Below, piece by piece: positions 9,944 to 62,400 of a stretch of DNA of 64,000 nucleotides. Position numbers and translations under genes: made by a program. Each line of letters begins with the position of its first letter. The first letter of the stretch is position 1. Source of the DNA: Candidatus Omnitrophota bacterium (GTDB lineage Bacteria; Omnitrophota; Gorgyraeia; Aquiviventales; Aquiviventaceae); contig JACQRB010000014.1 of assembly GCA_016206685.1 (NCBI GenBank), positions 9,152 to 73,151 on the forward strand, read 5' to 3'. The notes beneath the pieces are model-generated. The model was not told where the DNA came from, ran no database searches, and saw only the letters and a list, made by a program, of their open reading frames with translations.

Positions 9944-9961
9944 CAAGGTATTCGCGTCTTG

Positions 9962-11062
9962 ATGGTGGCGGAAGGCAGCGGCGGTCATCTCATCCCGGCC
10001 CTGGAGGTGGCGCGCGGCTTACGCCGCGGGGGGGCCTCGGTCAGGGTGGTGTATGCCCGGCGCGCTCGGGTGGGAGGGTTGCTGGAAGAGATCGTGTTGG
10101 AGGCCGAAGCCGACGGCGTACAGCTGCATCCGATTGACGTGTCGAGGGTGTCCCATCGAGCGATACGACTGTTTGGGCGGCTGGCCCAGGCGGGGCGGGC
10201 ATGGCGCCTCGCGCGCACCCTGTTTTGCGCGTCCCCTCCCCAAGTCGTGGTGGGGTTCGGGGGATGGGTGTCGGCGCCTGTAGTGCTGGCGGCGCGCCGT
10301 GCGGGGATCCCCGTGCTGCTCCATGAGCAAAACGTGCGCCTGGGCCGCGCGAATCGGTTTCTCCGTCGCTGGGCGCAGATGATCGCCGTGTCGTTCGAGC
10401 AGTCGCGCCAGGAGTGCCGGGGAACACCCGTGGTGGTGAGCGGCTTGCCGATCCGCCGCGCGATCGGGACCGCCGCCCGCGAAGAGGCGGCCGCGCATCT
10501 TGGCCTGGATCCGGATGCGTTGACCGTGCTCATCCTGGGCGGCAGCCAAGGGGCACGCGCCCTCAATCAACTGGCCTGCGGCCTGGTGAACGAGTTGACG
10601 GATCGCGAGCGGGCCTCATGGCAATTCATGCATCTGGCCGGCGTGTCGGATCACGCAGCCGTGCAGGCGGCCTATGCGGCCGCGCGCGCCCGTGGGTGGG
10701 TGGCGGCGCATCTGGGCCGCATGGACTGGGCCTATGCTGTGGCCGACGTCGTCATCGCGCGGGCCGGGGCCTCGACGATCGCCGAGTTGGCCCGCTGTGG
10801 GCTGCCCGCGCTCTTGGTCCCCTATCCGTATGCGAATGGACATCAGCGTGAGAACGCCCGTGTGGTCGCCTCCACCGGGGCGGGGGCATGGCTCGAGGAG
10901 TCGGCCGCCAGCCCGACGCGCCTGCTGCAGTCCCTTCGCGCGCTGCTGACGGATGCCGGCCGCCGAGTGAGGATGGGGGCTCAGATGGCGCGGTTGTCCA
11001 GACCCGACGCCACCACGCAACTGGCCTCGGCCATTGTCCAGCTTGCGAGGGTGCATGCTTAA
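9962..11062 (+). CDS. murG: UDP-GlcNAc:lipid I GlcNAc transferase (MurG)
   Basis: MVAEGSGGHLIPALEVA is the typical MurG N-terminus, and GGSQGA and ARAGASTIAEL blocks follow. The track start at 9875 would add a leader encoded by the repeat, so the start is ambiguous. Confidence 0.85.
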   Translation: MVAEGSGGHLIPALEVARGLRRGGASVRVVYARRARVGGLLEEIVLEAEADGVQLHPIDVSRVSHRAIRLFGRLAQAGRAWRLARTLFCASPPQVVVGFGGWVSAPVVLAARRAGIPVLLHEQNVRLGRANRFLRRWAQMIAVSFEQSRQECRGTPVVVSGLPIRRAIGTAAREEAAAHLGLDPDALTVLILGGSQGARALNQLACGLVNELTDRERASWQFMHLAGVSDHAAVQAAYAAARARGWVAAHLGRMDWAYAVADVVIARAGASTIAELARCGLPALLVPYPYANGHQRENARVVASTGAGAWLEESAASPTRLLQSLRALLTDAGRRVRMGAQMARLSRPDATTQLASAIVQLARVHA

Positions 11063-19111: not shown

Positions 19112-21919
19112 TGGAGTATAAATCCACGCTCAATCTGCCCAAGACCGGCTTCGCGATGAAAGCGGACTTGCCTGCGCGCGAGCCGCAGATCCTCGCGCGC
19201 TGGGAGGAGCTGGGGTTGTATGAACAGATCCAGCAAACGAGGAAGGGGAGACCAGCGTTTGTCCTGCACGACGGGCCGCCCTATGCCAACGGCGACATCC
19301 ACATCGGCCATGCCCTGAACAAAATCCTCAAGGACCTCATCGTGCGCTACAAGACGATGCGCGGGTTCGCCGCGCCCTACGTGCCGGGCTGGGACTGCCA
19401 CGGCATGCCGATCGAGCATCAGCTCTTCAAGGAGCTGATGCTCACCAAGCCGCAGATCAATCAGGCGAGCTTCCGCGAGAAAGCCCGCGCCTACGCGCAG
19501 AAGTACGTAGACATCCAGCGGGAGCAGTTCAAGCGGCTGGGCGTGTCGGGCGACTGGGGGAAACCGTATCTGACAATGTCCAAAGACTACGAGCTGACCA
19601 TCCTCCGGGTGTTCAAGGAACTGGTCGCCGCCGGCTACATCTAGAGGGAAGAAGCCGGTCTACTGGTGCGCCACCTGCGAGACTGCCCTGGCGGAGGCCG
19701 AGGTCGAGTACGAAGATCGGGCCGACACCTCGATCTATGTCGCGTTTCCCGTGACCAAACCGCCTCGACAACTTCCTGAGACGTTATTGGCGGCTTTTCA
19801 GCATCGGACCCAGACACCCTTGGCCGTGGCGGTGTGGACCACCACTCCCTGGACGCTGCCTGCCAATGTAGCCTTATGCTTTCATCCGACGGCCAAGTAC
19901 GTGGTGCTGCATCAACAAGGGTGGGCGTATAACCTGATCGTTGCCGAAGCCTTGGCGTCGGCATTGGCGGCACGGCTCAAGGCCACCAGTCCTCTGAACA
20001 CGGGATGGGGCACGGGACAGGATTTCGCAGGGATACAATGCGGCAATCCATTGACCGGCCGTCCATCTATGGCCGTGACCGACGAGAGTGTGTCGATGAG
20101 CGAAGGCACCGGCGTTGTGCACATCGCACCGGGGCATGGGCAGGAAGACTATACGGTCGGGCAACGATACAAGTTGGAGGTCTTCTCACCGGTGGATCAT
20201 CAGGGGAAATTTACCCAGGATGTCCCCCCATTCGCCGGCCAGTCGGTATTTGAGGCCAACCCGAAGATAATCGCCGACCTGGCGCAGCGCGGCCTCTTAT
20301 TAAAGGAAGAGCCGATCACCCACTCCTACCCGCATTGCTGGCGGTGCAAGCAGCCGGTGATTTTCCGCGCGACCCCGCAGTGGTTTTTGCGCATCGAGGA
20401 CGCCTTCCGCAGCAAGCTGCTCGAGTGCGCCAGGCAGGTCCGCTGGTTTCCGGACGCGGGCCTGGGCCGCATGTCCGGGATGCTCCAGAGCCGCCCGGAC
20501 TGGTGCCTCTCGCGCCAGCGCTACTGGGGAAGCCCCATCCCGGTGTTTCACTGCACGCGCTGCGAGCAGCCACTCTTGGATCCTCGCCTCATCGAGCAGA
20601 CCATCGAAGCGCTTGCGCAGCGCGGCATTGAGGCGTGGTTCCGCGCCTCGCCAGAGGAGTTGGTTCCGGGAGCGGCGTGTCCATGCGGCAGCCGCGAGCT
20701 GACGAAAGACCCGGACATCCTCGACGTGTGGTTTGATTCCGGCGTGAGCCACGAGGCCGTGCTGAAGGCGCGCCGGGAATTGACCTGGCCGGCCCAGCTC
20801 TACCTCGAGGGCTCCGACCAGCACCGCGGCTGGTTTCAGGTCTCGCTCATCCCATCGGTGGCGCTGCACGCTCGCGCGCCCTACGAGCAGGTGCTCACGC
20901 ATGGCTTCGTCGTTGACGGCGAGGGGCGCAAGATGTCCAAGAGCCTGGGCAACGTCATCGCCCCGCAGGAAGTCATCCAGCGCTATGGGGCGGATATCCT
21001 GCGCTTGTGGGTGGCCTCCTCCGATTACCGCGAGGACGTGCGCCTCTCGGAGGCGATCTTGGAGCAGGTGATCGAAGCCTACCGCAAGATCCGCAACACG
21101 TTTCGTTATCTGTTGGCGAACCTCTACGATTTCCAGCCCGCGCACCGGCAGCCCTATGAGCGGTTGCCTGAGCTGGATCGGTGGGCCCTCCAGCGCGCGC
21201 AGCGCCTCCTCGATGAGGTGACCCAGGCCTACGACGCCTACCAGTTCCATCAGGCCTTCCGCGCCATCTATCAATTTTGCGTCCTGGAGCTGTCGGCCTT
21301 CTACCTGGATGCGCTGAAGGACCGCCTCTACACGGAAGCGGCCCAGTCCGAAAAGAGACGCTGTGCGCAAACGAGCCTCTGTGCTATACTATCCGGCCTT
21401 GTGAGGATGCTCGCGCCCGTGCTGGCCATGACCGTGGAGGAGATCTGGCAGGCCATGCGCGCCTTGCACCTGATTGAAGAGCCGTCGGTGCACTTGGCGC
21501 AGTGGCCGCAGCCGCTGGTGCCGGCGAGCGATGAGCCATTGGAGCAGCGGTGGAACACGGTGCTGGCGGTGCGCGAGGTCGTGATGAAAGCGCTTGAAGA
21601 CAAGCGGATGGCGAACGTGATCGGCAGCTCCTTGGAGGCCCGCGTGACGTTGATAGTGACGGATCCGACGCTGCAGCGCCTGTTGCAGGAGTCTCGCCAG
21701 ACGCTCGCCGAGGCGTTCATCGTGTCAGACCTTGAGGTCGCTGGTAGCGCCGGGCCTGCAGGCGGGACGTCGCTGGCGGGGCTGGCAGGCGTGACCGTCG
21801 AGCGCGCCGCCGGGGCCAAGTGCCAGCGCTGTTGGAAGTACCTGCTCACGGTCGGCGAGGATCCCGCGCATCCGGCGCTCTGCGGCCGGTGCGCAACTGT
21901 GGTGAACGCCCTCGCATGA
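19111..21919 (+). CDS. ileS: Isoleucyl-tRNA synthetase, interrupted by a frameshift near 19640
   Basis: The N-terminal part 19111-19644 ([13 protein letters not shown] = HIGH motif) ends ...AAGYI-TAG. The IleRS continuation [23 protein letters not shown] is in the +1 frame from 19643 and runs to 21919 (KMSKS present, C-terminal Zn-ribbon CQRCW...CGRC). Confidence 0.85.
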
Positions 21920-28130: not shown

Positions 28131-29009
28131 ATGATCCCGTTGAGCGCGCCGGTCAAGAAATTCCTCCCCCTGATCTTTGCCGTGGTGATGGGGCTGCTGG
28201 CGGTCGGCTTGGTTCGTCGGTACCTCGGCCAGCAACGCCGGGCGTTGGAGCTTGAGCGTCAGCGGCTCATGGTGAATTACCAGGATCCGGTCGAGGTGGT
28301 GGTGGCGGCGAAGGACCTCCCTGCCGGGGTCACGTTGGAGCCGGCGCATTTGACGCTCGCCAAGGTCCCCGAGCGGTTCATGCAGCCCTATGCCACCCGC
28401 ATGCCGCAGCCACTGGTGGGCATGGTCACGGGCGCCCCCATCGCCGAAGGGGAGCAGGTCTTGCTCAACAAAATCCGCCGCCCGGAAGACGTTCCAACTA
28501 ATGCGACACTCTCCGATCTCACCCCCAAAGGCAAGCGGGCGGTCACCGTCTCGGTGGATATCATCACCGGCGTCGGCGGATTCATTCAGCCCGGCGATAC
28601 CGTGGACGTCCTCTGGACCTTAAAACTGCCCGCGGCAGGAGGGCAAGATGGCCAGGTGGTCACGTTGACCTTGTTCCAGGATGTCCCGATTCTCGCGGTG
28701 GCGCACGAGTTCCTGGGGCAGGGCAAGCGACCGGTGAAACCTGCTGAAGCGGAACACACGGTGACGCTCGCGTTGAGCCCGCAGGAAACCGCCTTTCTGC
28801 TCTTTGCGAGGGAGCAGGGACGGATTCAGCTCAGCCTGCGCTCCCAGTTGGATGGCGATGCGCAGGTGACCGTCGCCCCGGCGAGCATCAACACGCTGAT
28901 GGAGCAACTCCTGGGCAGTCAAGCCGGGGCGCCGACGAAAGCCCCTCGTCAGGTCGAAGTCTACAAGGGGCTCAAGCGGGACGTCGTGGTGCTCTCGGAA
29001 CAGCAATGA
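28131..29009 (+). CDS. cpaB: Flp pilus assembly protein CpaB/RcpC
   Basis: An N-terminal TM is followed by a SAF-like segment (VVVAAKDLPAGVTLEPAHLTL..VP) and an RcpC-like C-terminal domain. Confidence 0.8.
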   Translation: MIPLSAPVKKFLPLIFAVVMGLLAVGLVRRYLGQQRRALELERQRLMVNYQDPVEVVVAAKDLPAGVTLEPAHLTLAKVPERFMQPYATRMPQPLVGMVTGAPIAEGEQVLLNKIRRPEDVPTNATLSDLTPKGKRAVTVSVDIITGVGGFIQPGDTVDVLWTLKLPAAGGQDGQVVTLTLFQDVPILAVAHEFLGQGKRPVKPAEAEHTVTLALSPQETAFLLFAREQGRIQLSLRSQLDGDAQVTVAPASINTLMEQLLGSQAGAPTKAPRQVEVYKGLKRDVVVLSEQQ

Positions 29010-30634
29010 TGAGGAAGCGCTTCGCGCTGCTGGGGCTGATGCTTGCCGGGCTGTGGGTCGCCTCGGCGTGGGCGCAGCCGGTTTCCGCCGAGCGCGACGC
29101 CACGGCATCCTCGCCGGCCGCCAGCCAGGATCAGAGCGTCCCTGCCATCATCTTCCTTGAGCCCAGGCAAATCCGCAGCATGGCGGTGGAGGACGTCAAA
29201 CGGATTGCGGTGGGCGATCCGGACATCGTGGATGTGACGATCGTCTCCTCCAACGAAGTCCTCCTGCACGCCAAGGCGGCCGGCACGACGAACCTCATCC
29301 TGTGGGATCATCAGGGGCAGCGTGTCACCAACGTCGAGGTCGTGGACCGGCTGCCGGAAGCCCTTGAAGCCCAACTGCGCCAGCTCCTCACCCAGCTCAA
29401 CGTGCCGGGGGTGCAGGTGAAGCGGGAACACGGCAAGCTCTTTCTCATCGGGCAAGTCTTCAGGAAAGAGGAGTTCGAGCGTCTGGAGCAGATGCTCTCC
29501 GCCTATCCCGGCGTCACAAACCTGGCGCAAATCTCCGAGTCGGCCCCTGCGCCCTCGCTGCTGCCGCCGTTGGTGAAATTGTCGGTTCAAGTGATCGAGA
29601 TTAACCGCTCGGACCTGGAGCGGTTGGGCGTGCGCTGGTCGGAGTCCGTGGCATTCACCGAGCCGGAGGCGACCGACCGGACCGCGCACGACGCGCTCTT
29701 GCGGTGGGGCACCTCGCTCACGCGGGGCAGCACCTCCTGGACGCTGAACGCCCTGGTCAAACAGAACCGGGCGCGCATCCTTGCCGAACCGAAGCTCGTC
29801 ACCGCCAACGGCAAGCAAGCCTCCTCCTTCATCGGGGTGGAAGTGCCGGTGATCACGGCGACGACCTTCAGCACCACGACCTCGGCGGTCAGCACCAGCA
29901 TCGAGTTCCGCCAGACCGGGGTGTTGTTGAAGATGACGCCGAATATCCACACCAGCGACCATAAGATCACGACGGCCATCGAGGCCGAGGTCTCAAGCGT
30001 GGATAACTCGGTGGCGCTGAGCGTGCCGGTCGGCAACCAGACGGTGGCGGTGCCGGGCTTTTCGGTGCGCAAAGCGAATACGGAAGTGACCACCGCCTCA
30101 GGCGAGACCGTCATGATCGCCGGCTTGTTGCAGACCGAGGACACCAAGGATGTCAGCCAGGTGCCGGGCTTGGGCGGCATGCCGGTGGTGGGTCGTCTCT
30201 TCCGCTCACCGGAAACCGAGTCCACGCAGCGGGAACTGGTCATCGCGGTCACGCCGGAACTCCTCGGCGAGGAGGAGGTCAGTCCCGAGAAGGCGCTGAC
30301 GGTGGAGGAAGCGCTGTCGGTTGCGGAAAACGCCGCCTCGGCGGAGAACCCGCGGTTGCGCTACGTGCTGCAGGTCGAGGAGCGCATCGCCAAGTCCCTG
30401 CGGTATCCGACCCGCGAAAAGGACCTCAATGCGAGCGGGCAGGTGAAGCTGCGCGTCCACCTGTTGCGGGACGGCACCCTCAAGCAAGCGGTCATCTCCG
30501 AGTCCTCCGGGTTTGAGGCCTTTGACCAGGCTGCCCTCAACGCGGCACGGAGCCAATCCCCCTTCCCGCCGTTTCCCTCCGACCTGACCCAAGGGGAGCT
30601 GTGGCTTGAGCTGCCGGTCCTCTTTCGTCCCTAG
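29006..30634 (+). CDS. cpaC: Secretin (CpaC/RcpA-like) with a C-terminal TonB-C-like domain
   Basis: A signal peptide precedes the secretin core (ARILAEPKLVTANGKQASSFIGVEVP...VPGFSVRKANTEVTTASGETVMIAGLL...VPGLGGMPVVGRLFRS...ELVIAVTPELL). The last roughly 95 aa (YPTREKDLNASGQVKLRVHLLRDGTLKQAVISESSGFEAFDQAALNAAR..SPFPPFP) resemble TonB_C. Confidence 0.8.
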   Translation: MMRKRFALLGLMLAGLWVASAWAQPVSAERDATASSPAASQDQSVPAIIFLEPRQIRSMAVEDVKRIAVGDPDIVDVTIVSSNEVLLHAKAAGTTNLILWDHQGQRVTNVEVVDRLPEALEAQLRQLLTQLNVPGVQVKREHGKLFLIGQVFRKEEFERLEQMLSAYPGVTNLAQISESAPAPSLLPPLVKLSVQVIEINRSDLERLGVRWSESVAFTEPEATDRTAHDALLRWGTSLTRGSTSWTLNALVKQNRARILAEPKLVTANGKQASSFIGVEVPVITATTFSTTTSAVSTSIEFRQTGVLLKMTPNIHTSDHKITTAIEAEVSSVDNSVALSVPVGNQTVAVPGFSVRKANTEVTTASGETVMIAGLLQTEDTKDVSQVPGLGGMPVVGRLFRSPETESTQRELVIAVTPELLGEEEVSPEKALTVEEALSVAENAASAENPRLRYVLQVEERIAKSLRYPTREKDLNASGQVKLRVHLLRDGTLKQAVISESSGFEAFDQAALNAARSQSPFPPFPSDLTQGELWLELPVLFRP

Positions 30635-41456: not shown

Positions 41457-44400
41457 ATGCGCATTGACCGCTGGCTCCAACTGAAACGCACGAAGGCGTT
41501 CTGCATCAGCCTGGCGATGCTCTTCGCCGCGGAGCAGTGCGTCTGGGGCGCGGACCTCAACCTGCTCCACACCCTGCAGCTCTCCGGCGAGCAGCAGCGC
41601 CAGCTCGACCAGGCGCTCTCTGCCGCGGTCCTGACCATCTACCAAGACCTCTACAGCCGCGAACCCTCTTCCGAAGAGCTGCGTGAGGCGCTGGAGTTCC
41701 TGCGCCGCTCGCCCCAACTGGCTCACTTGGTGGAACGGCTCAGCCAATCCCCGGAATCCCGCTGGAGACTCCGCCAGCTCAACCCCGAGCGGATCAAGCA
41801 GCGCAAGGCGGAAGCCGCCCAGATTTCGCAAGCCGTCAGCCGCACCGTCGGCGGCTTCCTCCGCGACGTATTGCACTCATCACTCATCACTCATCACTCA
41901 TTACTGGTCATTACACCCACCCTCACCCTCCAACCTGCCCCGATAGTTCTGGCACAACTTGACGAGCCGGCAATTCAGTCCATCGAATCCTGGCTCCGCC
42001 AACCCGATACCCTGTGCGCCAACTGCGCCCCCAACGCCCTCGCTCCCTTACTGGGGATGGTCGGCGTGAACGTCTCCCGTGAGACCCTCACCGCCCAGGC
42101 GTTTCTCCTGGACTACCTCAGTGGGAATGCGGAATTCGGAATACTCCGCACTCCGCACTTCGAAGGTCCGTTGTTCATCAGCATGGATACCGTCCAACGC
42201 CTCGCCCAAGCGTACGGCTTGACGCTGAACGCCGTCGAGCTCACCAGCGACGAGCTCCTCCTGCTGAAGTACCCCATGATTGCCGCCCTGGACCTCACGC
42301 AGGACGGACAAGCCGACCACTACGTCGTCGTGCAGGACGCCAATGAGGCGCGGGTGGTCTACTACGAATCCGACGGCACGCGCGAATCCCTGCCCACGCA
42401 TGAGTTCCTACGGCTCTTCACCGGCTTTGCCCTCGTGGCCTCAGCCGACTCGTATGGGCGACTCTTGAATCAATCCCAAACGAGGACCATCGCTGGCGGA
42501 AGGTCCCGCCGGCAAGAGCTTCCGGACCTCGACAAACTCTTTGAGGAGCCCTCGCTTGGCGACACCTTGATGTCGGTCGGGATGAGCCTTGCCTCGGCGT
42601 ATTTTTCGCCGATGGGCTCCGGTGATTTCCTGTCGAATTTCGGCAGCTCGGCGCTGTACTCCCAAGTCAGCCAAGGCGCCACCCACCTCGCCGTCCGCAC
42701 CTTCGGCTGGAGTCCCGGGGCGGCTCAAATCTTCGGCTATGGCGTCACCGGCGCGTTGAGCGGAGCGACCACTGGCGCCTATCAGTCAAATTACCGGTGG
42801 AACAGCGACTCGTGGCTAGGGAGTACCATGGGGGGGTGGTTTGACATTCAGGCATATCCCATCTCCACAGGGGCAGCCATGGGAGCCCTCAAGGGTGCCG
42901 CGATCGGCGGGGGCTCGCTCCTCGCCTACGAAGCCCTCAAGGACACCAGCTTCTACGAGAGCAATCCCTTTGTGGCACGGCAGATGACGTCGCTGGTGGG
43001 AGGGGCAGGGGGCTACCTCGGCTTTTACGGTCTGACCTCGCTGGCCGGCATTGATCCCGCAATCACCGTTTCGAAAAGTTACGTCGATGCGCAACAGGAC
43101 TTCAAACTCGGGAACGCGACGCTGGCAAACCTCACCCTCATTCCGGAAGCCTTTGAAAAGCAGGGGGGCTATCAGGTGTGGGCCTCGCAGGCATTTGGGG
43201 GCGCTCTTGGCGGGTTGTACCTGGCATTCTCCGATCCTGCCTTCCAGACCAGCCTGGTGTCTCAGGGCATCGGGCTCGCCGCTGAGTACGCCGTACCCAA
43301 CTCCAGATATTCCCGCCTCTTGGGTCAAAGTGCTGGCTCCCTCGGCGCAGCCGCCTTGGGGTATGGAAGCGTCGGGTGGCCTGAGGTCCTCAGGGACGCG
43401 GCGATCTCCGGTCTCTCATCACTCGCCCTACAATCCCTGGGCGGCGGATTCGACCGCAACACGGGCAAGAACAACTGGGGGCTTACGCCCGTCCAGATGG
43501 CGGCGGTCGAGTATGCGGGGACCACCCTCCTGCGCGCGACATGGGACAGCGGCGCGGGATGGTACAGGGGGTCGAATGATGCTCTGTCGTCCACCTTCAC
43601 CGACTCCCTTGGTCGCAACCTCAGAAACCTCTCCCTGGACTATGCGACCTTCGGCAGGACCACCCCGGCTTGGACGCGCGGGGCAGGCGGCTGGGTGGAG
43701 GCGCAGTACATCGAGAAGCTCGCCCAGGTGTCCGGCATCGCCAACTTCAAAGCCAATGCCGACCACGCCATGCAAACCACCGGTCAGTCCTGGAATCAAT
43801 TCGTCAAAAGCGGTCGGCTGGATGACATCCTGCCCTCTCCGGCATTCTCCCTGGTGGACTATACGGCTTCCACCCTCCACTCCGCCGCCGTTGAGAACCT
43901 GGCGTTTCCGATGAGAGACTTTGCCTCACGGATGCTGCCGCAAACGCCGCCTCAGTCAATTCCCTTTAAGGATGGTACGATCGGCAAGCTCCAGGTCGCC
44001 GGAGCCACCTTCGGTCCTCCTGGAGGATCAGACCTCGTGGTGAACAGCTACGCGCTCTACAAAGACGGTCAGGAGCTTGGTCAGTATGTTGGAGTTGACC
44101 CGAAAACAGGCACGATCCGCGTCGCTGGCGACATCGAGGGCGATGCTGTTCAGTACTATGATGACCAGGGCAAGCTGACCGCAGCCATCACCGAGACGGG
44201 CATCCTGACGCCCCAGGTCGCCGGCGCGACCTTTCGTTCGCCAGTAGGGACTGACACCTTCACCGTTGACACCTACGAGCTCCGTGACTTCAGCGGCACC
44301 CCGTTGGGGCAGTTCATCGGCTTCGATGCCCAGGGCAAAGTCCGCGTCGCCGGTGACCTCGAAGGCGCCCAGGTGCGGTACTTCGATCAGGCTGGTCAGC

Positions 44401-50400: not shown

Positions 50401-53400
50401 AGACGTCGTCTGCGGCGCTATCCGCCTGGCAACAGGCGCTGGATGGGCTGACCGTGAATGCGGAGTGGCTCAGCAGCGCGTTCCTCATCCTCGCCGGCGT
50501 AGCAATCCTCGGCATCGCATCGCTCCTCATCTTCCGCTGGTGGTCCCGCCGTCGCTCGCAGGTTTCCCAGCCCGTTGCCGAGCCGAAATTTGTCGAGCCA
50601 GACGAGGCGATCCCAGTTGAGCAGCCAACCTCTGGCCGGATCATTATGTTAGATGACCAGGCCGTTGGTGAAGTCAAGCAGCCTGGAGACATCAAGGAGG
50701 TTGAAGGCCGCATCTTGTATGGTCGCCTTGAGCAAGAGCGGGTTCAGCTCATGCAGCGGTATTTGGCTGGTGATCAATCTGTCGAGGCGCGAATCCGCAA
50801 GCTCGAAGCACAGCGCAATGACGCCTTGGATCAACTCAAGGTGGCTGCCGAACAGTATGACGATGACGTGCTCCTGAGTTTGCTTAACCCGGACGGACAG
50901 CAACGGTTTGCAGTGGGCCAGCAGATCTCGCGGGATGAGCGGGGCGGCCGCAACGTGATTGGCGAAATTCTCGAAGCACGCAGAGCCACAGAAGAAGCGG
51001 CCAAGCAGCAGGCGCGCGATGCCATCTTGAGCGACGTGGATCAGGCGATTTCTGCCAGCACGGAAGCGTGGCAACTTGAACAACACAAGCGAACCTTCCT
51101 GGACAATGTCCTTGACCCTGCCAAGCTCGCCAGCCAAGAGTTCACTGATGACGAGGTGGCAGCGCTTCGCCAGGAAGTTGTGCGACGCTTTGAGCAGGCC
51201 GGAGAGCGGCTCATTGTGACGGAGGCCAAAGCAGAGGAAGCCGTCGCGCAGAAGTTGGCCGAACGACAGTTGGCTGAGTCAGCTCTCGAAGAGGTTTTAA
51301 AGACACGAGAGGTTTACTATCGCGCCTTTGATGAGCGAAAGACCCTGGGGCTCCAAAAGGTCGAAGAAGCAGGAGAGCCTTATCGACAAGCGCAGACGGA
51401 AGCTGCTCAGGCATGGCTGCAGAGCCGAAGGGAGGTAGTCCGTCATCTCCTTAGGCTCTGGGTACCTCTATGGAAGACAGGACCTAGGGAAGGAGAAACG
51501 CCTGAAGCGAAAGTTGAGCGTCTCACGAATACGTTGTTAGAACGGTTCGAGCGTATCGTTCAGTCTGGCCGATACAGCAACGAAGACGCTTTGCACTTCT
51601 TAGATCAACTTGTTCGAGCTAGGACTACTTTTGAGCGGGAAGGTTTGGCTGAAGAACGGGCGCTTGTTGAACGGCACATCCAAGACCTGATCGCCATGAT
51701 TGAAGCCGTTTCGGATGGCACTGTCTATTGGGAAGGCAATCTCGTCGGTCAAGACTTCAACAAGCTCTTCAAAGCGGGCCTTCCTGTGGCCATACTAGGG
51801 GATGAGGCCGAAGGACAGCAGCCTCCTTACACGATCACAGTGGTGACTTCGTCAGGGTTCAAGGGCCGTCGAGAATACATTGGTGATCAAGAGGTCAGCG
51901 CTCAGGTAAGCGTACGTGGCACGGCACCTGCCGAGGTCAAAATCGGACCGACCATCGAAGCCAAAGAAGCCGCCAAACCAGCAGAGGTAGAGGAAGCCGC
52001 CGCGCCGACCGACGGCGAAGCCAGCGCGGTGCGGGCCGATGCCGATATTGTGAGAGTTCGAGTTGAGGGCTCAAAGGTTGTCACTGTAGCAGAAGCGTTG
52101 GAAGCTGCCAAAGAGCGTGGAGTTGTCACGGAAGAGGTGATCAACCGGGTGTCTCAGGGAGCATACCGAGTTGAAGTAGAAATCCAGCGGAGGGACGGTT
52201 CCGTTGGAGCGACGATCGATGCCAGACTCATGGGTGGACTCGAATATGGAGTGGCCCCAGGCAGTTCCATTATCCTTACTCCAACAGCGCCCACCGCCAA
52301 GGAGCCACGGCCGGGTGGGCTGGAAGGACAAGCTGGGTTTGCGCTGGTCGAGGTCCTGCCGGGGGTGGCAGGAGGCGTGCTCGTCAGTATCGCGCTCTAC
52401 CCGCTGATCGGCTGGCTCGGAGGACTGGCAGGCTTGGCGGTGCTGGGAGGGCTGTGGTTGGTGGCGTCGCGGATTCGGGCGCCGGCGGAAGAGAAAGCGT
52501 CAGGGCTTGCGGTGGGCGTGCCGCGCCTGTCGGTCTTGGAGCCAGACGACGGCGGCGATGGCCAGCGCGAACAGGACCATGCCTCCGAAGATGATATACA
52601 GGCCCACTTCTCGTTGTTCGATCATCTTCGCTCCTTATTGAGCCACGTGGCAACGCTGTACAGGATCACCAGCATCCCAATGCCACTGATGAAGATCGTT
52701 GGACGAAAGGGAGAAGGAGAAACCACTTGGCCAATTACCACGCTCGCCAGAAAGATGTTCGCTGCGTTGTATAACGCGTTCGCGAGCCCCTTCCGCTGGC
52801 TTTCATCGAGCTTCATCAACTCAAGTATATCGCTCGTCTGGAGCCCTGTCAATGTCACGCTCACCCCCACACTCCTCAGCCTTGGCTTCCTGCTCGCCTG
52901 GGCCCTCGGCTGGATTCCGGATGTCACGCTCGGCGCCGACGGCTGGCACGGCTCGCTGCCGTATTTTAGCTTTGGTGGGCTGGCGAAGATCATCAAAGAA
53001 TCCGGTGAGGGTGGAGACAAGTCGACTACGAAGGAACTGGTGTTCACCACGCAAGAAGTCGCAGCTCTGCTCAGAGTCCACCTTAGCACCGTCTACCACT
53101 TGATCGACAAGGGTCTATTGAAGGCTTCTAGAATCAGCTCTCACATCATCCGTATCCACCGTGATGCACTCGAGGAGACATTTGGCGCAGGAGCACCTGA
53201 GGTGAAGTGGTTGACCGTGGAAGAGGTCGCGAAGCGAGTCAAGCTTCACTATAGAACACTGCTACGTCGGATCCATGCGAAAGGACTAAAGGCGTATCGG
53301 CTCGGGGGCGGCGAGGGAGACTTTCGCATCCGCCAGGATGATCTTAACGCCTTTCTCACCGCCAGGAAGACAAATCCTGCGCTCACGCCGCCCGCCGCCA

Positions 53401-56400
53401 GGAGCGGGCAGACAGGGTCCGAAGTCTTCCCAGGGCCATGGTTCCCGCCGATGCGCTCCGATCCAACGTCGCCGTGGAGGGAGAGGGACCGAGGAGGAGT
53501 GGAGTTTGGGGATCTGGGACCTTTCAACGAACCCCCGGCCTCACCCGGGAAGATTGAGCCCAATGATTCCGCCGATGCCGTGGTCGCGGTCCTTGTGCGA
53601 TGGTCCGAGCAGGGAATCTCGAAGGCCCAGTTCGAGTCGGTCCTGAGCTGGTGGGATCCTGATAAGGAGCGAGAGGAGGAGGCGTTAAGGCCTCAACTTA
53701 GGTCTGGGGATCCGCTGACAGGCTGGCTCCTCGGCGCACTCGAGCAATACCAGCAGGAATACCAGCAGGAGCCGACGAACCCTACCTTGGCCGTCGCCGC
53801 CAAGACGCTCCGGGAATTCCTGTCCCCCCCGCCTGTGGCCGAGCCGCAGCAGGGCGGCAGGGCGCAGACGAAGGAAGAGGAGGCGCTCGTAGAAAAGCAG
53901 AAGCTGGAACAACGGGTCAGGACGACGTTCCATGACCTGGCGATTCCTGTCAACGTGATCATAGGCAGCGTCGAGTTCATCAGGGAGGCGTTGGGCCAGC
54001 ACCCCGAGGCGAAACCACTGGTTCAGCAGCTCACGAAGCTCATGGGTGAGCTCAACGCCAAGCTTAACCACGCGAGGGCTCGCGTCGTGAAGGTCCTTTG
54101 GGAAGAGGCACGCTCCACTCAGGATGCGCGGACACGGCTCATGGAGCTGGTAGATGGGATCAGAACGTCCCTCGAGGATCTGGCGCGCTGGTGGGACCTC
54201 CATCAGGATGACCTTCTCCAATACGTCAGGGACACACCAGGCGAGCCTCGCGTTGCGTGGGCAAGAGACCGGATCTCAAAAGTGCTTCCGCAAGCTCGCG
54301 AATTGCTCGATCAGGTCCTCGAGGAGGAAGCGCCGACCGAGGTGGATCTGGGATCACTCGTGACGCGCGTACAAGCAGACTTCCCGGCGACCGACTCTCT
54401 CACAGTCACCCTTGCTGACTTGCCGCCTGTGCTCCCGCGTGTGCGGGTGAAGGCCTTCGGGCTGCGCCGGGGTCTGTGGAACATCCTGCGCAACGCGGAG
54501 GAGGCGGGGGCGACACGCGTGGGAATCCGCCTTACACTCGTTCCCCTCACGCCCATCCCTGGGGCGCCGCCAGGGATCGCGATCGAGGTGGCCAATGACG
54601 GACCTGCCATTGAAGAGGGGGTGCTTGCGAAGCTGTTCAAGGAGCAGGTGACCGGTAAGGAACACGGCCACGGCATTGGCATGGACGCGCTTGGCAGGCT
54701 TGTGAGGGCATCGGGTGGCACGATCAGGGCGGACAACCGTGAGGGCCACCCGGTCTTCACGATCTGGCTACCGGCCTTTACGCCAACCGTGGGCGGCGGG
54801 GCGCCGAGCGGAAAAACAGTAGAGCTCAAGCGCAGCGGGATGGAGGCAGTGAGGCAGTTGCGCGAGCTCTATACCAGAGCGCTTGAGCTGCTCGACCAGC
54901 CAACACAACTCCCCGCGCTCATGACTGAAGCCAGCCGCGCGGTGGATCAGATTCTAGTCGGCGAAGCGCGCCGGATGGCGAAGGACCTCCTGAATCCCCT
55001 CAGCGGGCTCCAGCTCGCTGTTGAGCTCTCATTGCGGCGACAGAAGGGTTGGCTGCCAGGGGAACGGGAGGGTCTCTCCTCGATGTTGCGCCGGCAACTT
55101 GAGGAGTTGGACGATATCAACCGCGCGTTGGAGGGATGGCCGGACGACCAGCCGTTACCCATCGAAACGCTTCGGGAGGGTTTGCCCGCCATACTCGATT
55201 GGCGCGCGATCCTTGCCGTCGCGCCGGCGAAAGCCGAGCGTTTCTACCAAACGGCAATCAAAACGGTTGAATCGCTCGCATCCCGTCACAACGTCTTTCG
55301 GGAACTGCTTGACTTCACAGAGCGCATCACCCTGGAAGACGCAGTAAAAATTTATGCTGAGACCGTGCGGAGCTATCTAAACGGAGCCTATAAAGATCAA
55401 GACCCAGGCGCCCTGATAGCTGCTTCAGACTGGCGTGATGTCTTTGAGAATAAATTGACGCCATTCTCTTCAGATATGCGGCTCTTTGGGGGTCAAGAAA
55501 CGCAAACGTTCGACAAGAAATCAATAGAGAAAGTCAGAGAGATTGGCCGCGTCGTGATTGCGCTCCATACGTTGAAGAGCAAGATGCAATCCGGAGAGTG
55601 GGATCCCGAAGTCGTCAAGAGGGCGTTCGCGAAAGCCGCCATGGAGGGAGCCTTCTTGCAGCATGTGAAGAACGCGTTAACGGACCGCGACCAGCGTGAC
55701 TGGTCACAGAAGGACTTGGAGGAACTGGCTCGGAGTCTGGGCATTACGGAATTGAAGTTGAATGATCTCATCGACGACCTAGCGGCTCGTCAAGCCATTC
55801 CTGTTGAACCTGGTCTGGTCATCCGTATCGAACGCGAGTCAGGAGGGTTCCAAGTCTCGCTCCCGACGATCAACAAAAGCAGGCCATCCTCGACCCGCAA
55901 GCGCCTGATGGCCTGGGCGGTCACGAGTGTCGTGATGAGCGCTCTCGCGGCGTGGGCGAAGATGTCTGTCGGCGCTGCCGAACCTGGGACGTTCAGCCAG
56001 TTTGTGGGCGACCTCTTGGGGGCTGGGTTCCTCGGCGCGGTCACTGCACTCTTGGCCGCCGTGGTCATGCTGCCGGTGGTGCTGATGGGTCGCCACCCCG
56101 CCCCACGCAGAGGAAGCGGCACGCTCGCCGAGCTTTCCGATTGGCTCGCTGGCGATATCCCAAGCTCCATGGATGCCGGCAAGTGGAAGGAGCGGCTCGA
56201 GACCTTCAGGCAAGAGGCAGGATACGCTCACGTTCCAGAAGCGGACTTCGTGGAGGCGGTTCAAGGAATCATTCACGAGGACAAGCAGTGGATCCGGAAG
56301 CAGGTCGAGTTCCTGAGCCTGTCGGCCAAGGAGGAAGACGCGCGAGGCAGCGCTGCTGAGCGCATTGCTCGCAAAGCCCAGGAGACGGCTCCAGACAATC

Positions 56401-59400
56401 CGGACGCGCCGACCTATCTGATTCTTCTGACCACCGCAGAGCTGATTGCCGCCGTGCTGTCCCGCCCCGAGCCAGGCGGCAAGGGCATCACGCGCCGCCA
56501 GATACTCAGGTCTGCGCTGCTACTAGGAGGGGCAAGGCTACTGGGGCTGCGTTCGCAGGCTCGTGCCGCAGAGCCGCCGCAGAATCCCGCCGACGCGCAA
56601 GCGATTCTGGCTCGCATCGTGACGCCCCAGCGGCGCCGTGCCATCGAGCGAGCGGCGCGTCTGTTGGACGTGGAGCCGGAGCTGATTGAAGCCTTCCTTA
56701 TCGAAGAGGTTCTGTATCGCGAATCAAAGAGTAGATGGGGTCGGTGGTTAGCGGATACGAAAGACCTACTTTCCTCACGGGCGAGCCGGGGGGTGATGCA
56801 AGTTAGGATGGACACGATCCTTGGGACAAAGACAACCAGCCGGCATCTCTTGACATTCTTGAAAGAGCTGCGAGCGTTTGGCGAAGACGGGGAACCGCGC
56901 ACTGACGAAGAGCGGGACGCCCGGGAGGCGCTTCGCGAAGTCATGACGGCGTGGGACACGTATGAGACTGTGGCGAAACCATTAGGGAAGAAGCTGAAAG
57001 ACTATCTCTACGAGTCAGTTGCCAAGCTGCTGCTCTACGACCGGTTCAATATCCTGGCAGGGGCGTTCGTCATGCGTATAAAAGCCGGGCAAGATGGAGC
57101 GGCAAACAAGGACAAGGGTCCCAGGATCCACTCACGCCACTGGAAGGCGGAGACGCTCGAGCGGGTGGCGAAGTTCTATTCGGGCGCAGAAAAATCAAAC
57201 CGCGGCAAGCATAAGCTGGCGTGGTACCGGATCCTGAAGCCGGAAGCTCCGAGCCGTCAACGGGTGCCGCAGAAGCGGAAGGTCAGCGTCCCGGACGCAA
57301 CGGGTAGAGCAGCAGTCGAAAGCGGCCTGATCCTGGCGACGGACTGGAAGGGGCGCAAGGAGGACGAGCTCAAGCAGCTTGATGAGCGGATGGGGCTCAC
57401 GCCGGAACGGCTGAAGAAACTCCGGGTGCTGAATGCCAACCTGAAGCAGGTCATGTGGGAAGTTCTGCAGATGTATAAGCATGCGCCTAACCAGAGATAC
57501 CATGTGGAGAGTTTCGCCTTCTTCGGCAGCATCGTGACAGCTTCGCCGGAGGAGTTCCTACGTCGCTTGGATGATCCGGAGCATGATGAGCACGGTCTGC
57601 CGACGCACGACGTGGACGTCGCCGTCAATGTGACCCCTCGCGACAATGTTCCCGTGCAACGATATCAGCCAATCTGGTACAGGCGGCGCCGCATCAACGT
57701 GGTGACGTCTGGGGTGACGGGAGGGGGTCCATCCGCACTCCTGGACGTGAAGCGGTTGGAAGCTTCCGAGAATTACCTGCTCGAGTTCCTGCGCGAGCGC
57801 GTCGCCAGCCTCTCGCCGGAGGAGCGCCTGGCGCTTTTCGATAGAACGGTGCTCGACAAGGTGGCTGACGAACTCATTGCCCACTGGAAGCGACAAGAAA
57901 AAGACGGGAAGCCGTTACTCGCCCTGCAGATGGGTCTGGCTACGAGCCCTGGTCTCACCGACAGAGAATCCAAAGCGCTCATCGTCTCTTTGCGCAAGCA
58001 GGAGGAAGCCATCGTCCAGATTCTCATGGATATCTATCGGGCTCGGGAGCGCGACAAACTCGGGTGGGAAATGGAGGGACCGTTGACGCAGGTGTTGCAT
58101 GAGCGCGTGCGCCAGGAAATCAGCCGGGAACTCGCAATGAGTTGGCTCGAACGAAGCCCTGACGCGGTCAACGTCGCCTCTCAAGACTATGTCCGGCAGA
58201 TTGATCAAGATGATGCGCTCCGTCCGATGCTGACCACGGTGATTTCGCGGTCTGAGAATGTCAAAGACCGATTGGAAGCGCTCGCGCTCATCATGAATAC
58301 GATGCAGGACAGACAATCGCGGGGAGTCGATGTGTTTGAGCCGCTTTGGGACAACATGATGAAGGAACTCCTGTCGCAAGGCGTCGCTCAGTTGAATCCG
58401 CAAGACATCGCGATGGCAGAGCTCATCCGGCTCGAAATCTTTGCAAGCCTCTTGGCTCGCGCCAGAACCCTCAATAGTTCGGAGGCCACGACCGTTCAGG
58501 CAACATTCGGGGTGGCCTTTGCCGCGGCGTTTGCCCCGAAGCTCCTCAGTGTCCTGGGATTGAGTGCGCCCATCATCCCCATGATGGCGTGGCCCGTGGC
58601 GTTCCTGGCGCTAGGATATGGCATCTGGTTCAAGCGGGCCCTCTTTGGTCAGATTCACCAGGCAGTCAGGGGCTGGTTGGGTAGACCGCCGGTCGTTTCG
58701 GGCAAGCTGGATGTTGACGCATTGGCCAGGGAGGTCACTGACTCTCTGGATCTGATCGAGCGAGGGACCATCGAGTTGTTTAGTCTCAAGGAGATGGATG
58801 AGGAAGGAGCACGGGCAGCCGCCGCAGCCTACGGCTTGGCTCTCGAGGCACTGCGCAACAGCATCATCGGGGCATTGAAGCGGGACAGACGGCCTTATGA
58901 CGACAAGATCGTTGATGCGATCCAAGAGCGCGCTGTGCAACTCCTGCGGCCTGGATCTGTTGTCTCGCAGGAGACCGGAGAGCGCTTGCCAAGTTCAGCC
59001 AACGGATGGCGGACGCTCCATTCCTGGCTCGTGCCGCTGGTGGGGGCTGGGCTCCTTTCCCTCTACGGCTTCGGCGGGGACTTCTCGTGGGGCTTGGTGG
59101 GGCTGACGCTGGCGATGCTTGGCGGGCTGGCGGCGGTGAGCTACTTGGCTTCGACGGCTTCGAGCCGGCTTGCGAACTTCTTCAGGTCGTCCCGCAGCAG
59201 TTTGACTTGGAGCTCAAGGGCTTCAAGCTTCTTCTCGATGTCAAAGCTGCACGTCTTGAGGACAGACGTGTCATTTTTCAGCCGGTCGATCTCATCGGTG
59301 TTTTTGCGGCCAATCAGCTTGAGCAGATCAATATCTTCGACCATCTGGTTGACCTTCGGTTCCATTCGCTCCACAGACTTGCGAACCCCTGAGAGTCCTT

Positions 59401-62400
59401 CACCAAATGTCCGAAACTCTCCACGTAACTCTTCCAGCAGGGCGTTGGTCCGCCCGGATTCAGCGCTTGAAGACGGCTTGCGTGCAGGGGACATTACTTC
59501 TTCTCCTTCTAGTTCTAGGCCTTTAGACATACACCACCAGCAATCACGTGTCAATCCGAAATTCTTGGGCCTGCTCCTGCGACAGATTGCGGCTGGGCTG
59601 CGCAGCCTCTGGGCCGGCAAGGTGAGCCCGGCTCACGCACCGCCACAGCCACAGGTTCGCTCCTGGATCAGCCGCATCAGACCGCTCATCATCTCCTTCT
59701 TTGTCATTGCCACGACGCTCTTCCTGCCGACCCTTGGCTGGGCTGGCACCTACGTTGTCCGGCAAGGCGACAGCCTCTGGCGCATCGCCAAAGCACAGCT
59801 TGGCGATCCCCTGCGCTGGACTGAAATTCATCAAGCCAATCCGGCGATTATCAATCCGGACCTCATCTTTCCAGACCAACCGATTACCATTCCTGAACCG
59901 TCCGGGACCTCAGACGCCATCACCCAGCTGGCTGGTCAGCCAGCCGGTGGAGAACAAGCGCCGTTTGGACCGCAGAGCGTGCCTGACACAGGAGGTCTGG
60001 CCGACCTGATCACGCAAGCCATCCAGGCTCATCCGGATGTGTTGCTGGCCATCGGCGCCGTCGGACTTGCATGGCTCGGCTATGTCGCCTACCGCTGGTG
60101 GACCCGCCGCCCATCGAACCCCTCTCTCTCGCGTGATCTGCAAATTCGCTGGCTCTGGATGACGTTTGGATTCCGGCAATTCCTGAAAGAGCTGCGACCG
60201 CGATTCAACACAGCCTTCGTGGCATTACTGCTCTACGTGCTGACCAGTTTCAACGGGGTGTTAGTGGCTGCCTTCGCAGGCGCATTGTCTTCGACTAAAC
60301 CCGCAGCTCAAACAGGTCAACTGCAACGCTCGCCGCTACCAGACTTCACGTCTTCTCCGTTATTTATCGCTCCCACCCTCGAGGAGATCAAGTACTACGG
60401 CGATCTGCGCAAAGCCATAGGCAAGGTGGAAGAATCCAAGCGCTGGGTCGCCCTCATGGAACGGCTGTGGACGAAGACGGACGGCACGCGCTTCATGTTG
60501 ACTTCATTGAAGGAAGGAGAACTCTACACACCGGTTCCGGTCGAAGGTGCGGATGGTCCGGACAAACAGTTCGTGACCACGAAGCGGTTCATGGACTTCG
60601 TGCGGGATGAGAAGACGGCGTCCCGAGTCTATGCCGCCCCCTCTATCCCGGGACCGCTCGACCTCGCGAAGATCAAGGAAGACTGGCGCCAGATCACCAA
60701 CCCGCGCGAGCTGGAGCGGGCTCACGAGAAGCGAGAGCGGCTGTACGTGGTCTTCACCTGGCGGGAAGCCGACGGCACGCTGAAGGAAGGCCTGCTGGAA
60801 GCCGGCAAGCTCGCCGCCGAGGACACCGAGCGGCTCTCCAAGGCGTTTCTCAACGGGTTGTTTCTGTCGAGCCAATTGCTTGACGTGCTTGCCATCAGCA
60901 ATCCCCAGGCGCAAGCCAAGGAAATCAAGGCACGGTTTGGCATAGATATAGATGTTGAGGTAGGGAAGCAACCCTATGCCGCGGTGGACGTCAAGCGGGA
61001 TGAGCTGGGCAACATCACTCAGGTGGTTGGATTCTATCGGGACGATGACATTGAGGTGGAGCCGAATTGGGAGACTAAGCGGGCTGAGCTCATCCTCAAG
61101 GAGAAGGACGGGAATAAGAGCCCGCTCAAATTCTGGCCACTTAACAAGGACGAGATGGGGCTGACGTTCGCCAGGAAAACGCCGAATGAGATCGAGCGCG
61201 AGATAGGCGTGAGAGCAGGCAAAGAGTACGAAGGGGAGCGGTATGACCTCGAGAAGGACGGTGAGCCATTGGCGCGAGGCGAGATCATCCTCGGTCAAAA
61301 CTTCCTTGAGTCGCGGCTGGTGGATAACAAGATGGCGCAACTCCTCCTGCACGTGCAAATGGAGTCGTTGCTGCACTCCGTGGACTTTTTGGAGAAGCGA
61401 AGGGTCCTGGACCTGATCCTGGTGCCCATCAATATCGGTTTGGCTGTGGCGGGGAAGGGCGTGCCGATTCCCATTAGCAACATCGCCCGGATGGCTTTTG
61501 AAGCCCTGTATCATGACAAGCTGAAAGCTGCGACCCCCACGCCGGAGCAACAGGTGGAGTTCTTTGCACAATTCTTGATGGTTCGGCAGAAAGCACAGCG
61601 GGCTGGTCAGCGATTGAGCGACGACGAATTCGCACGCGAGAGTGAAACCGCCAAGGAGCAGTGGGCTGCGCTCAAGCCCGAGGAGCAATCCCGTCTGCGC
61701 GACGACGCCAAGACGTATCTGGTGGAGCGCTTCAGCGACTTCGATGACGAGCGGTTCTTCCATTTTGTCAGAGCCCAACGGACCGAGCAGACCGCGCGCT
61801 TCCTTCTGAACGCCTTCACGCTGTTTGCGGATATCGCCGGGGCAGTCCTTGAGCAGGACACCGTCAAAGTGCGGGGGGGATTCAAAGGGACCCAGCAGAT
61901 TGTGTTTGACCAGCCCAGGTTTAAGCTGGCGGTGGATATCCTCCGCGCGAAATACCTCTCCCTCACCGAGGTCAACCTTGGTCAGCTCATCTCCCTGGCG
62001 GCGACCGGTCGCCAACTGAACCTGATGAGCGTCCGCGAATTCGGTCGCGGGTCATTCCTGAATACGTTCTTCAGCGCGGTGAGCTTGAGGCCTGACACCC
62101 TGAGCGTGGTCAATGCGCTCCACAAGGCGTTCGCCCCGCCTGAGACGGCTTGGCAGAAAGTGTTTGAGACGTCGCCAAGCACCCCGCGCTTCATTGTGGA
62201 GCTCTTCGGCTTTCCCATCCAGACTTTCTCGGAGCTCGCCCTGAAGAAGGACGTGTTGCGGGCGATGTCCGAGTCGCATGCGTACGAAGTGACCGACGGG
62301 TGGTTCTCGTCCTCAGTCACCCCATACACGCAAGAGCGGTTCGAGCATCTTGACAAGATCCCCATTGGTAAAGTGATTCAGCTCGAATCGGGACAGCAGG

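Follow-up and report, generated by a model that had tools for sequence, protein, structure and literature searches.

The 64,000-nucleotide stretch of contig JACQRB010000014.1 analysed here, called the window in the following, stems from Candidatus Omnitrophota bacterium (assembly GCA_016206685.1). It carries on its plus strand a giant open reading frame (ORF) which in one short interval lies opposite a small minus-strand gene. An earlier note on this DNA had described the interval as an embedded antisense unit composed of a promoter, a Shine-Dalgarno (SD) sequence and a 117-aa coiled-coil ORF, and had pointed to a second unit of this kind further upstream in the giant frame. We refer to the interval considered here as island 2 and to the upstream unit as island 1. 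All elements that had been ascribed to island 2 were found, and the region consists of the following features.

59554-59549, minus strand: -35 hexamer TTGACA, read directly from the sequence, matching the consensus at 6/6 positions
59531-59526, minus strand: -10-like hexamer TATGTC, 17 nt spacer after the -35 hexamer, 3/6 positions matching, without the final T
59507-59503, minus strand: SD sequence AGGAG, 8 nt before the ATG at 59494
59494-59141, minus strand: small gene, 117 codons followed by TAG at 59143-59141
41454-63998, plus strand: giant open frame, 7,515 codons, stop-free, running off the end of the window
59142-59555, plus strand: island 2 read in the giant frame, 138 aa, Ser/Arg/Phe-rich, no stop
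59082-59138, plus strand: hydrophobic, transmembrane (TM)-like segment with a Kyte-Doolittle (KD) value of 1.76, ending at the stop codon of the small gene
59685-59894, plus strand: next module, with a hydrophobic segment at 59685-59741 and a LysM domain at about 59751-59894

The leader between the -10 hexamer and the ATG measures 31 nt on the minus strand, in agreement with the approximately 30 nt given in the earlier note, and the distance of 8 nt between AGGAG and ATG also agreed. The small protein consists of a basic N-terminus, the motif SGRTNALLEELRGEFRTFGEGLSGVR and a coiled coil with the C-terminal sequence RLEAVEAK. It contains no Tyr, no His and two Gln, the same counts as in the note, and neither a TM segment nor a lipobox was found in it. 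When both strands of the 64 kb were scanned, the pattern TTGACA-N17-TA was detected only at 59554 and at 52852, both times on the minus strand and within the giant frame. No Rfam family matched between positions 52000 and 60500 of the window. The exact 117-aa protein is missing from a collection of 15 billion proteins in which the neighbours on its contig are present; the small gene is therefore unannotated in the source record. Five of these neighbours were found under accessions MBI43228xx, with Candidatus Omnitrophota given as their source.

The giant frame is by far the longest open stretch of the window. It is preceded by a stop at its left end (41454), and the ATG at 41457 is its probable start. 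Across island 2 it encodes a peptide with 27.5% Ser, 12.3% Arg and a net charge of +10, for which no Pfam or PHROG match was obtained; the residues at the edge of the island read ...AAVSYLASTASSR. Hydrophobic 19-mers at 59082 and 59685 lie on the two sides of the island, so that the TM flanks that had been described are present, and the following module does begin like a protein N-terminus, with a TM segment and LysM.

A first search with the small protein yielded a single relative, P0001, with 55% identity. A family profile built from two sequences was then run against 1.84 billion representative proteins and gave 223 matches at E <= 1e-3, of which 39 reached E <= 1e-10; nearly all of the proteins are 80-170 aa long. 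The family is characterized by a basic N-terminus (M..PRKP.K), a variable coiled coil and a C-terminal RLxxVEAK, as well as by the motif RRTNVLLEKLxxEFRTFGEGLxxVR with K or R at EF(R/K)TFGEGL; the window protein carries GRTNALLEELRGEFRTFGEGLSGVR. It matches the family hidden Markov model with an E value of 2.8e-39 and also has the family length of about 80-170 aa, the one long helix and the C-terminal RLxxVE(A/T)K. AlphaFold2, given an alignment of 28 sequences, predicted one continuous helix comprising residues 9-116 with a mean pLDDT (predicted local distance difference test) of 93. Most likely, the small protein is cytoplasmic and oligomerises through its coiled coil, the N-terminus forming a basic tail.

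In Pfam and PHROGs only sub-threshold coiled-coil matches were found for the small protein. The Pfam families matched weakly by family members (DUF1664, DUF16, FlaC_arch, Lpp, ZapB and XhlA) likewise comprise short proteins made up mostly of one long helix. An assignment of the small protein to any of these families was rejected, as no match reaches the curated cut-off and all of them are due to the composition of coiled coils; the N-terminal motif VLLExLxxEFRTFGEGL is absent from all six.

Homologues as free-standing genes, for which the earlier note had proposed to search, do exist. They were found in Omnitrophota-type contigs with a guanine-plus-cytosine (GC) content of about 41% (L007, L008 and L010) and in five metagenome-assembled genomes (MAGs) labelled as Bacillota. 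In L007 and L008 the copy has a TpsB-type transporter operon on one side and a gene for a cytidylyltransferase on the other, and in L010 it precedes the gene for a solute-binding protein. Altogether the neighbours vary (solute-binding protein, AraC regulator, amylase, SecDF, TPR, TpsB/TPS pair), and since they differ between the free-standing loci the gene context gives no functional lead. A scan of genome contigs with the two-sequence alignment gave no match; with a 10-sequence alignment only free-standing Bacillota copies and no nested GTDB representative genome were recovered. Among the 33 family members with recorded contig size, 29 had been called on contigs shorter than 3 kb. As the giant ORF is truncated on such contigs, this suggests that gene callers suppress the gene when it lies opposite a long ORF. 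From the comparison of these sequences, the small ORF of island 2 is a real gene of a conserved, as yet unnamed family without a Pfam entry.

To describe the surroundings of the gene in related genomes we used all high-GC relatives (60-65%) with retrievable DNA, namely L001-L005 and L011-L014, which were picked by similarity of the small protein only. L006, a spurious-looking duplicate of Bacillota type with 41% GC, was left out of the nested cases. Relatives also occur in samples SRR22387871, SRR22388048, 3300009444 and ERZ27298651, and run SRR12113385 contains a protein identical to one of the window. No stop interrupts the opposite frame with coincident third codon positions between the two contig ends in L001, L002, L004, L005 and L011-L014. 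These contigs are 0.9-2.5 kb long with the exception of L004, for which 12 kb of a 44-kb contig were taken and where the opposite frame comprises 3,999 open codons. L004 contains three tandem paralogues of the small gene at 9983-10375, 10388-10768 and 10781-11008, all of them antisense to the 3,999-codon frame. Each of the three copies has AGGAG 7 nt before its ATG, and copies 2 and 3 are preceded by agatagAGGAGtcctgcc. The giant frame of L004 also repeats a segment of about 30 aa, SWAGGFGEAGQPGGLPALVWAGLLSAIVIVA, at a distance of about 700 nt.

Counting the window, the nested small proteins are intact in 12 of 12 copies although their mutual identity is only 26-58%, and all 10 high-GC loci show the same orientation. 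The island is the sole part of the giant frame that is similar to the opposite-strand frames of L001-L005, and the sense peptides of different loci are 36-57% identical. Outside the island no similarity was detected between the giant frames; the conserved entity is the small gene and not the surrounding giant protein. In L001, L003 and L004 the island is likewise preceded by hydrophobic stretches. Where the gene is free-standing in low-GC DNA, a stop ends the opposite frame at the gene or a short distance beyond it. An ORF with putative expression signals is thus found on both strands and kept in relatives, which is what characterizes an antisense overlapping pair.

The probable explanation, in our view, is that the small ORF is a genuine gene with its own promoter which is older than its surroundings and was engulfed in antisense orientation by a growing giant ORF, both strands still being in use. 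We considered four alternatives to this explanation. First, the island could lie in ordinary gene order between two separate plus-strand genes, the lack of stops being a by-product of composition; second, the small ORF could be untranslated, its promoter driving a regulatory antisense RNA only, or the gene being a silent relic; third, the sense peptide could be the functional product and the minus-strand ORF its accidental shadow; fourth, the island could be an invertible, phase-variable cassette that switches the giant protein between the linker and a coiled coil or stop.

The first alternative makes statements about the codon usage of the flanks and about stop codons, and both were analysed. 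Codon usage was modelled on eleven ordinary genes of the window, and in 137 of 149 segments of 300 nt the giant frame scored best of the six frames. The antisense frame with coincident third positions won only at 59004-59604, by up to 38.8 nats. In segments of 150 nt the antisense minus sense score averaged -15.8 (standard deviation 8.2, n=747) and exceeded +8 in nine segments only, all of which lie at 59094-59544 and score +11 to +25 nats, with a peak of +25.5. In the flanks of the island of the window the giant frame again scores best, and at those loci that show both flanks the codon usage likewise favours first the giant frame, then the small-gene frame and then the giant frame once more.

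As the two frames share their third codon positions, stops in the plus frame can stem from two situations only: a Tyr codon of the small gene that comes after a codon with T or C as its last base, or a His or Gln codon that comes after a codon with T as its last base. From base composition about one random stop per 36 codons is expected at 63% GC. We kept the amino acid sequences fixed, redrew the synonymous codons from genome usage and counted how frequently the antisense frame was free of stops. The chance of a stop-free frame was 0.12-0.73 per gene; all 12 nested genes are stop-free, which corresponds to a product of 10^-6.7, or about 3e-5 for a conservative subset of eight clearly distinct genes. 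Nine promoter/leader segments are also stop-free in the giant frame (chances of 0.30-0.77 each, product 10^-2.7), and for genes and leaders together the joint chance is about 10^-9. Among eight free-standing relatives, seven contain one or more stops in the corresponding frame. According to a tally of counts, His and Gln together make up about 2% of the residues in the nested proteins vs about 6% in the free-standing ones. Synonymous sites are near saturation, given a pairwise difference of 0.58 at third positions. Taken over the set of loci, these numbers point to selection as the reason why the giant frame has stayed open across the island.

Two separate plus-strand genes are nevertheless suggested by several observations. 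For each locus taken by itself the chance of an open frame is not small, neither for the gene body nor for promoter and leader. In L003 an antisense frame of 406 codons is open beside a gene for a ferritin-like protein. In L015, a Bacillota MAG with 56% GC, a 206-codon family member made of RLDT(V/I)(D/E)(N/T) repeats (9961-10579) is open on both strands over its whole length, an example of how easily an open antisense frame results from the composition of the family. The module that comes next after island 2 resembles a protein N-terminus (TM plus LysM), and in L011-L014 gene callers set the starts of the downstream modules directly beside the small gene. However, a separate upstream gene needs a stop, and there is none in 7,515 codons of the window (22.5 kb) or in 3,999 codons of L004 (12 kb). 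The complete absence of stops from the 12 genes and nine leaders, and coding-type codon usage of one and the same frame on both flanks of the small gene, also speak against ordinary gene order, which we consider unlikely.

The second alternative bears on the expression of the small gene, and here the upstream region was compared between loci. All ten high-GC loci have TTGACA (TTGACT in L013), a spacer of exactly 17 nt and a -10-like hexamer in the versions TATGTC, TACGAT, TATGGC, TATGGT, TATGCT, TACCTT, TAGGAT and TAGCAT. The promoter scanner called the sites of L004 (10/12) and L013 (9/12), which are the sole promoter-like sites of those regions, and the low-GC Omnitrophota copies L007 and L008 have TTGACA-17-TAAACT. 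In seven loci the ATG follows 6-10 nt after the -10 hexamer, which implies a leaderless or near-leaderless mRNA. In the window, L002 and L004 the ATG is preceded by a leader of 31-91 nt that contains AGGAG or GAGG. We predict from this conservation that the motif is a sigma-70-type promoter of the small gene.

The substitution pattern was analysed in 57 gap-free columns of 11 nested genes. The pairwise difference by codon position of the small gene was 0.412 at position 1, 0.316 at position 2 and 0.584 at position 3. As position 1 of the small gene is position 2 of the giant frame, the order 2 < 1 < 3 points to the small-gene frame as the constrained one. The mean BLOSUM62 score per aligned pair was 2.08 in the small-gene frame vs 1.42 in the giant frame, so that in the comparison of strands that had been proposed in the earlier note the small-gene amino acids are the better conserved ones. 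Judged by these patterns, protein-level selection is acting on the small-gene strand. At the island the giant frame appears to be selected for the absence of stops only; there is no sign that its peptide itself is selected.

Antisense RNAs from strong intragenic promoters are common in bacteria, and an RNA without translation, or a relic, would agree with the lack of an annotation in the source record. The -10 hexamer of the window is weak, and the expression of either strand is a prediction from the sequence; both points count against our explanation and in favour of this second alternative. A mere RNA or a relic is at odds with an ORF that is intact in every nested copy at such low identities, with position-wise variation and conservative substitutions as in a coding sequence, with an SD sequence or a leaderless ATG at the right distance, and with the existence of free-standing genes of the same family. 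We judge it to be somewhat less likely still than ordinary gene order.

That the sense peptide is the functional product would fit its identity of 36-57% between loci and its position between TM segments, like that of a cytoplasmic loop. However, free-standing homologues exist without a giant frame opposite, and their N-terminal motif, common to the family, speaks against their being unrelated coiled coils. In addition, codon usage and substitutions favour the minus strand, promoter and SD sequence are conserved, and the sense peptide has no family match. The substitution pattern and the free-standing relatives rule out that the minus-strand ORF is the shadow of a selected sense peptide, and this third alternative is very improbable. 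The earlier note had regarded the sense sequence as the antisense of a real gene, and family, codon usage and substitution pattern all place that gene on the minus strand. It had also named orthologs which conserve the sense peptide but not the antisense ORF as counter-evidence; the opposite was found, the small gene being conserved. The invertible cassette, for which one could only deduce that the shared third positions would keep the reading frame on inversion, is the least probable of the four, since no inverted repeats bracket 59141-59554 (the best pairs, of 13-20 nt and 80-92% complementarity, lie elsewhere), no recombinase is encoded nearby in the window and the orientation is the same in all 10 loci.

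Several further observations weigh against the engulfed-gene explanation. For the gene of the window alone, antisense openness has a probability of about 0.67 given its amino acid sequence, as the earlier note had expected when it called the openness here less surprising, and that of the promoter/leader is about 0.40; because this single gene is unremarkable, the case for selection is carried by the set of loci. The loci are related to each other, so that the independence behind the joint products is only approximate. L003 is an exception, as its opposite frame is open for only 406 codons with a ferritin/Dps-like domain after the island and no giant ORF. A frame that deserves to be called giant was seen in the window and in L004 only, seven of the nine related loci being contigs of 0.9-2.5 kb. 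The giant frames of different loci have no detectable homology outside the island; engulfment may have taken place once or more than once. The promoter scanner did not call the site of the window, as the hexamer TATGTC lacks the final T, and no terminator was found by the scanner 3' of the small gene in the window.

The plus strand of island 2 contains three hairpins at 59206-59309 that resemble terminators and have T-rich tails, and the 1.7-kb region around the island contains 4 terminator-like sites vs 1.4 expected. These hairpins were not seen at the homologous places of L004 and L013 and were for this reason treated as chance; they are probably a by-product of the Lys and Glu codons on the opposite strand.

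If the small gene was engulfed, the following sequence of events could be envisaged. The small gene would be the older partner, with relatives that stand alone in other Omnitrophota and in Bacillota MAGs. In a lineage with 60-65% GC, neighbouring same-strand genes or modules would have fused into a frame that reads through the antisense strand of the small gene. Engulfment would have been easy because of the shared third positions and because the family is almost without Tyr and poor in His and Gln. The giant frame would then be translated through the island, and the result would be a loop of about 140 aa, rich in Ser and Arg and of positive charge, which is situated between TM segments and whose sequence is dictated by the small gene. 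The value of the open frame may lie in coupled transcription and translation being carried into the next module (TM plus LysM) rather than in the peptide. Head-on transcription from the promoter of the small gene may, at the module boundary, disturb the expression of the giant gene or divide it into segments.

Island 1 has the same anatomy as island 2. On the minus strand at 52622-52852 it shows TTGACA (52852-52847), a spacer of 17 nt, TATACT (52829-52824) and, after 7 nt, an ATG at 52816, a start of the leaderless type. The ORF encodes 64 aa with two hydrophobic stretches (MKLDESQRKGLANALYNAAN...NKERR) and, like the gene of island 2, occupies the antisense frame whose third positions coincide with those of the giant frame. 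No Pfam domain matched it, and codon usage did not flag it. In L003 the gene of the island-2 type (357-713) is followed by a same-strand ORF of 217 aa (963-1613, plus strand). The N-terminus of this ORF is 61% identical to the island-1 protein over 28 aa (E 3e-7), and it has its own TTGACA-17-TACGAT with an ATG after 10 nt. The match indicates that the two island genes are neighbours in L003. Their order and orientation agree with those in the window, in which they are 6.3 kb of plus-strand coding sequence apart.

The remainder of the giant frame is composed of diverse parts. Its N-terminus is signal-like (MRIDRWLQLKRTKAFCISLAMLFAA), a Peptidase_C39 domain matches at residues 243-330 (E 2.2e-9), and two LysM, two HTH_17 and HisKA/HATPase_c were identified as further Pfam domains. 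A crude TM predictor found 14 hydrophobic 19-mers with KD >= 1.7 along the frame. The two HTH_17 domains (excisionase/MerR-like) and the HisKA/HATPase_c pair are located on the plus strand at 53040-53260 and about 54400-55100. HTH_17 and HisKA/HATPase_c normally occur in small cytoplasmic proteins, HTH_17 usually as a free-standing DNA-binding protein, and their presence in the giant frame fits a giant ORF that arose as a fusion of once-separate genes. A sense-frame query covering 58002-60500 found no homologue among 5.8 billion proteins, and protein searches therefore offer no way to compare the flanks of the giant frame between genomes.

The left part of the window is ordinary chromosome with ftsI, murE, murF, murD, murC, ileS and a secretin gene. 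The secretin-type ORF (28748-30631, plus strand) matches the GspD/PilQ family and has a TonB C-terminal domain at residues 552-628. For the ileS-like ORF (19598-21916, plus strand) the match to the isoleucine-tRNA ligase model begins only at position 171 of the model; the N-terminal part of the enzyme may be encoded in another ORF or frame owing to a split gene, a frameshift or an assembly error.

In its composition the giant frame resembles the Archaeovorins of Omnitrophota. These are described as having C39 near the N-terminus, many transmembrane regions and HATPase_c, in most full-length examples also a SecA-DEAD helicase-like domain, and as reaching lengths of more than 30,000 aa (bioRxiv 10.1101/2023.11.21.568195). 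The frame of the window shares with them the phylum, the N-terminal C39, the many TM segments and HATPase_c. No SecA-DEAD domain matched in the 7,515 visible codons of the frame, which runs off the window on a contig of only 76.6 kb, and its two HTH_17 domains are a difference from the Archaeovorins. Going by these domains, the giant frame looks like one of the Archaeovorin type. In a term search of the full text of the same study and of a report on 176 complete Omnitrophota genomes (bioRxiv 10.64898/2026.06.07.730766), antisense or opposite-strand genes were not mentioned, nor were "nested" genes in the latter.

Whether functional antisense overlapping genes exist in bacteria is debated (PMC7457138). 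By their own authors, the embedded antisense ORFs olg1 and olg2 of Pseudomonas aeruginosa were called evolutionarily novel (PMC8850804), and ano and other overlapping genes of E. coli O157:H7 were called novel genes antisense to annotated genes (PMC5960689, PMC9927249). Island 2 resembles olg1/olg2 and ano in that a protein-coding ORF with its own signals lies wholly within a longer gene of the opposite strand, and it resembles the "shadow ORFs" of high-GC genomes in that the pairing of frames favours long antisense ORFs. Unlike these novel genes, the embedded gene appears to be old here, and it is the enclosing giant frame that would have come later. Also unlike them, the overlap is kept across 26-58% protein identity, with the host frame seemingly selected for stop absence only, and it is known so far from sequence alone. 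What is new, if our interpretation is right, is the reversed polarity of the overlap relative to reported cases, with an old embedded gene and deep conservation.

The islands are of interest for bacterial two-strand coding in general, island 2 being among the cleaner comparative cases, as it has an old and recognisable partner, a recurrent overlap and a constraint on the second frame that can be measured as stop avoidance. They also reveal a blind spot of annotation, in that the family gene appears to be missed where the giant ORF is long. For the giant ORFs themselves it is a stated open question whether they give rise to one transcript and polypeptide or to several pieces (bioRxiv 10.1101/2023.11.21.568195), and conserved head-on promoters and genes at module boundaries are concrete places to look for such a segmentation. 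Tentatively, and with more doubt than confidence, one may go a step further and regard the giant ORFs of Omnitrophota as mosaics that grew through anything situated between same-strand genes, still-active opposite-strand genes at TM-cluster boundaries included, these genes punctuating or gating expression. The coiled-coil gene of island 2 and the gene for the 64-aa membrane protein of island 1, both engulfed, would then have kept their strong, often leaderless promoters, and continued translation-coupled transcription would be the only reason for the absence of stops opposite them. If this were true, part of a giant protein would be dictated by another gene, and bidirectional coding would be a built-in and conserved property of these ORFs.

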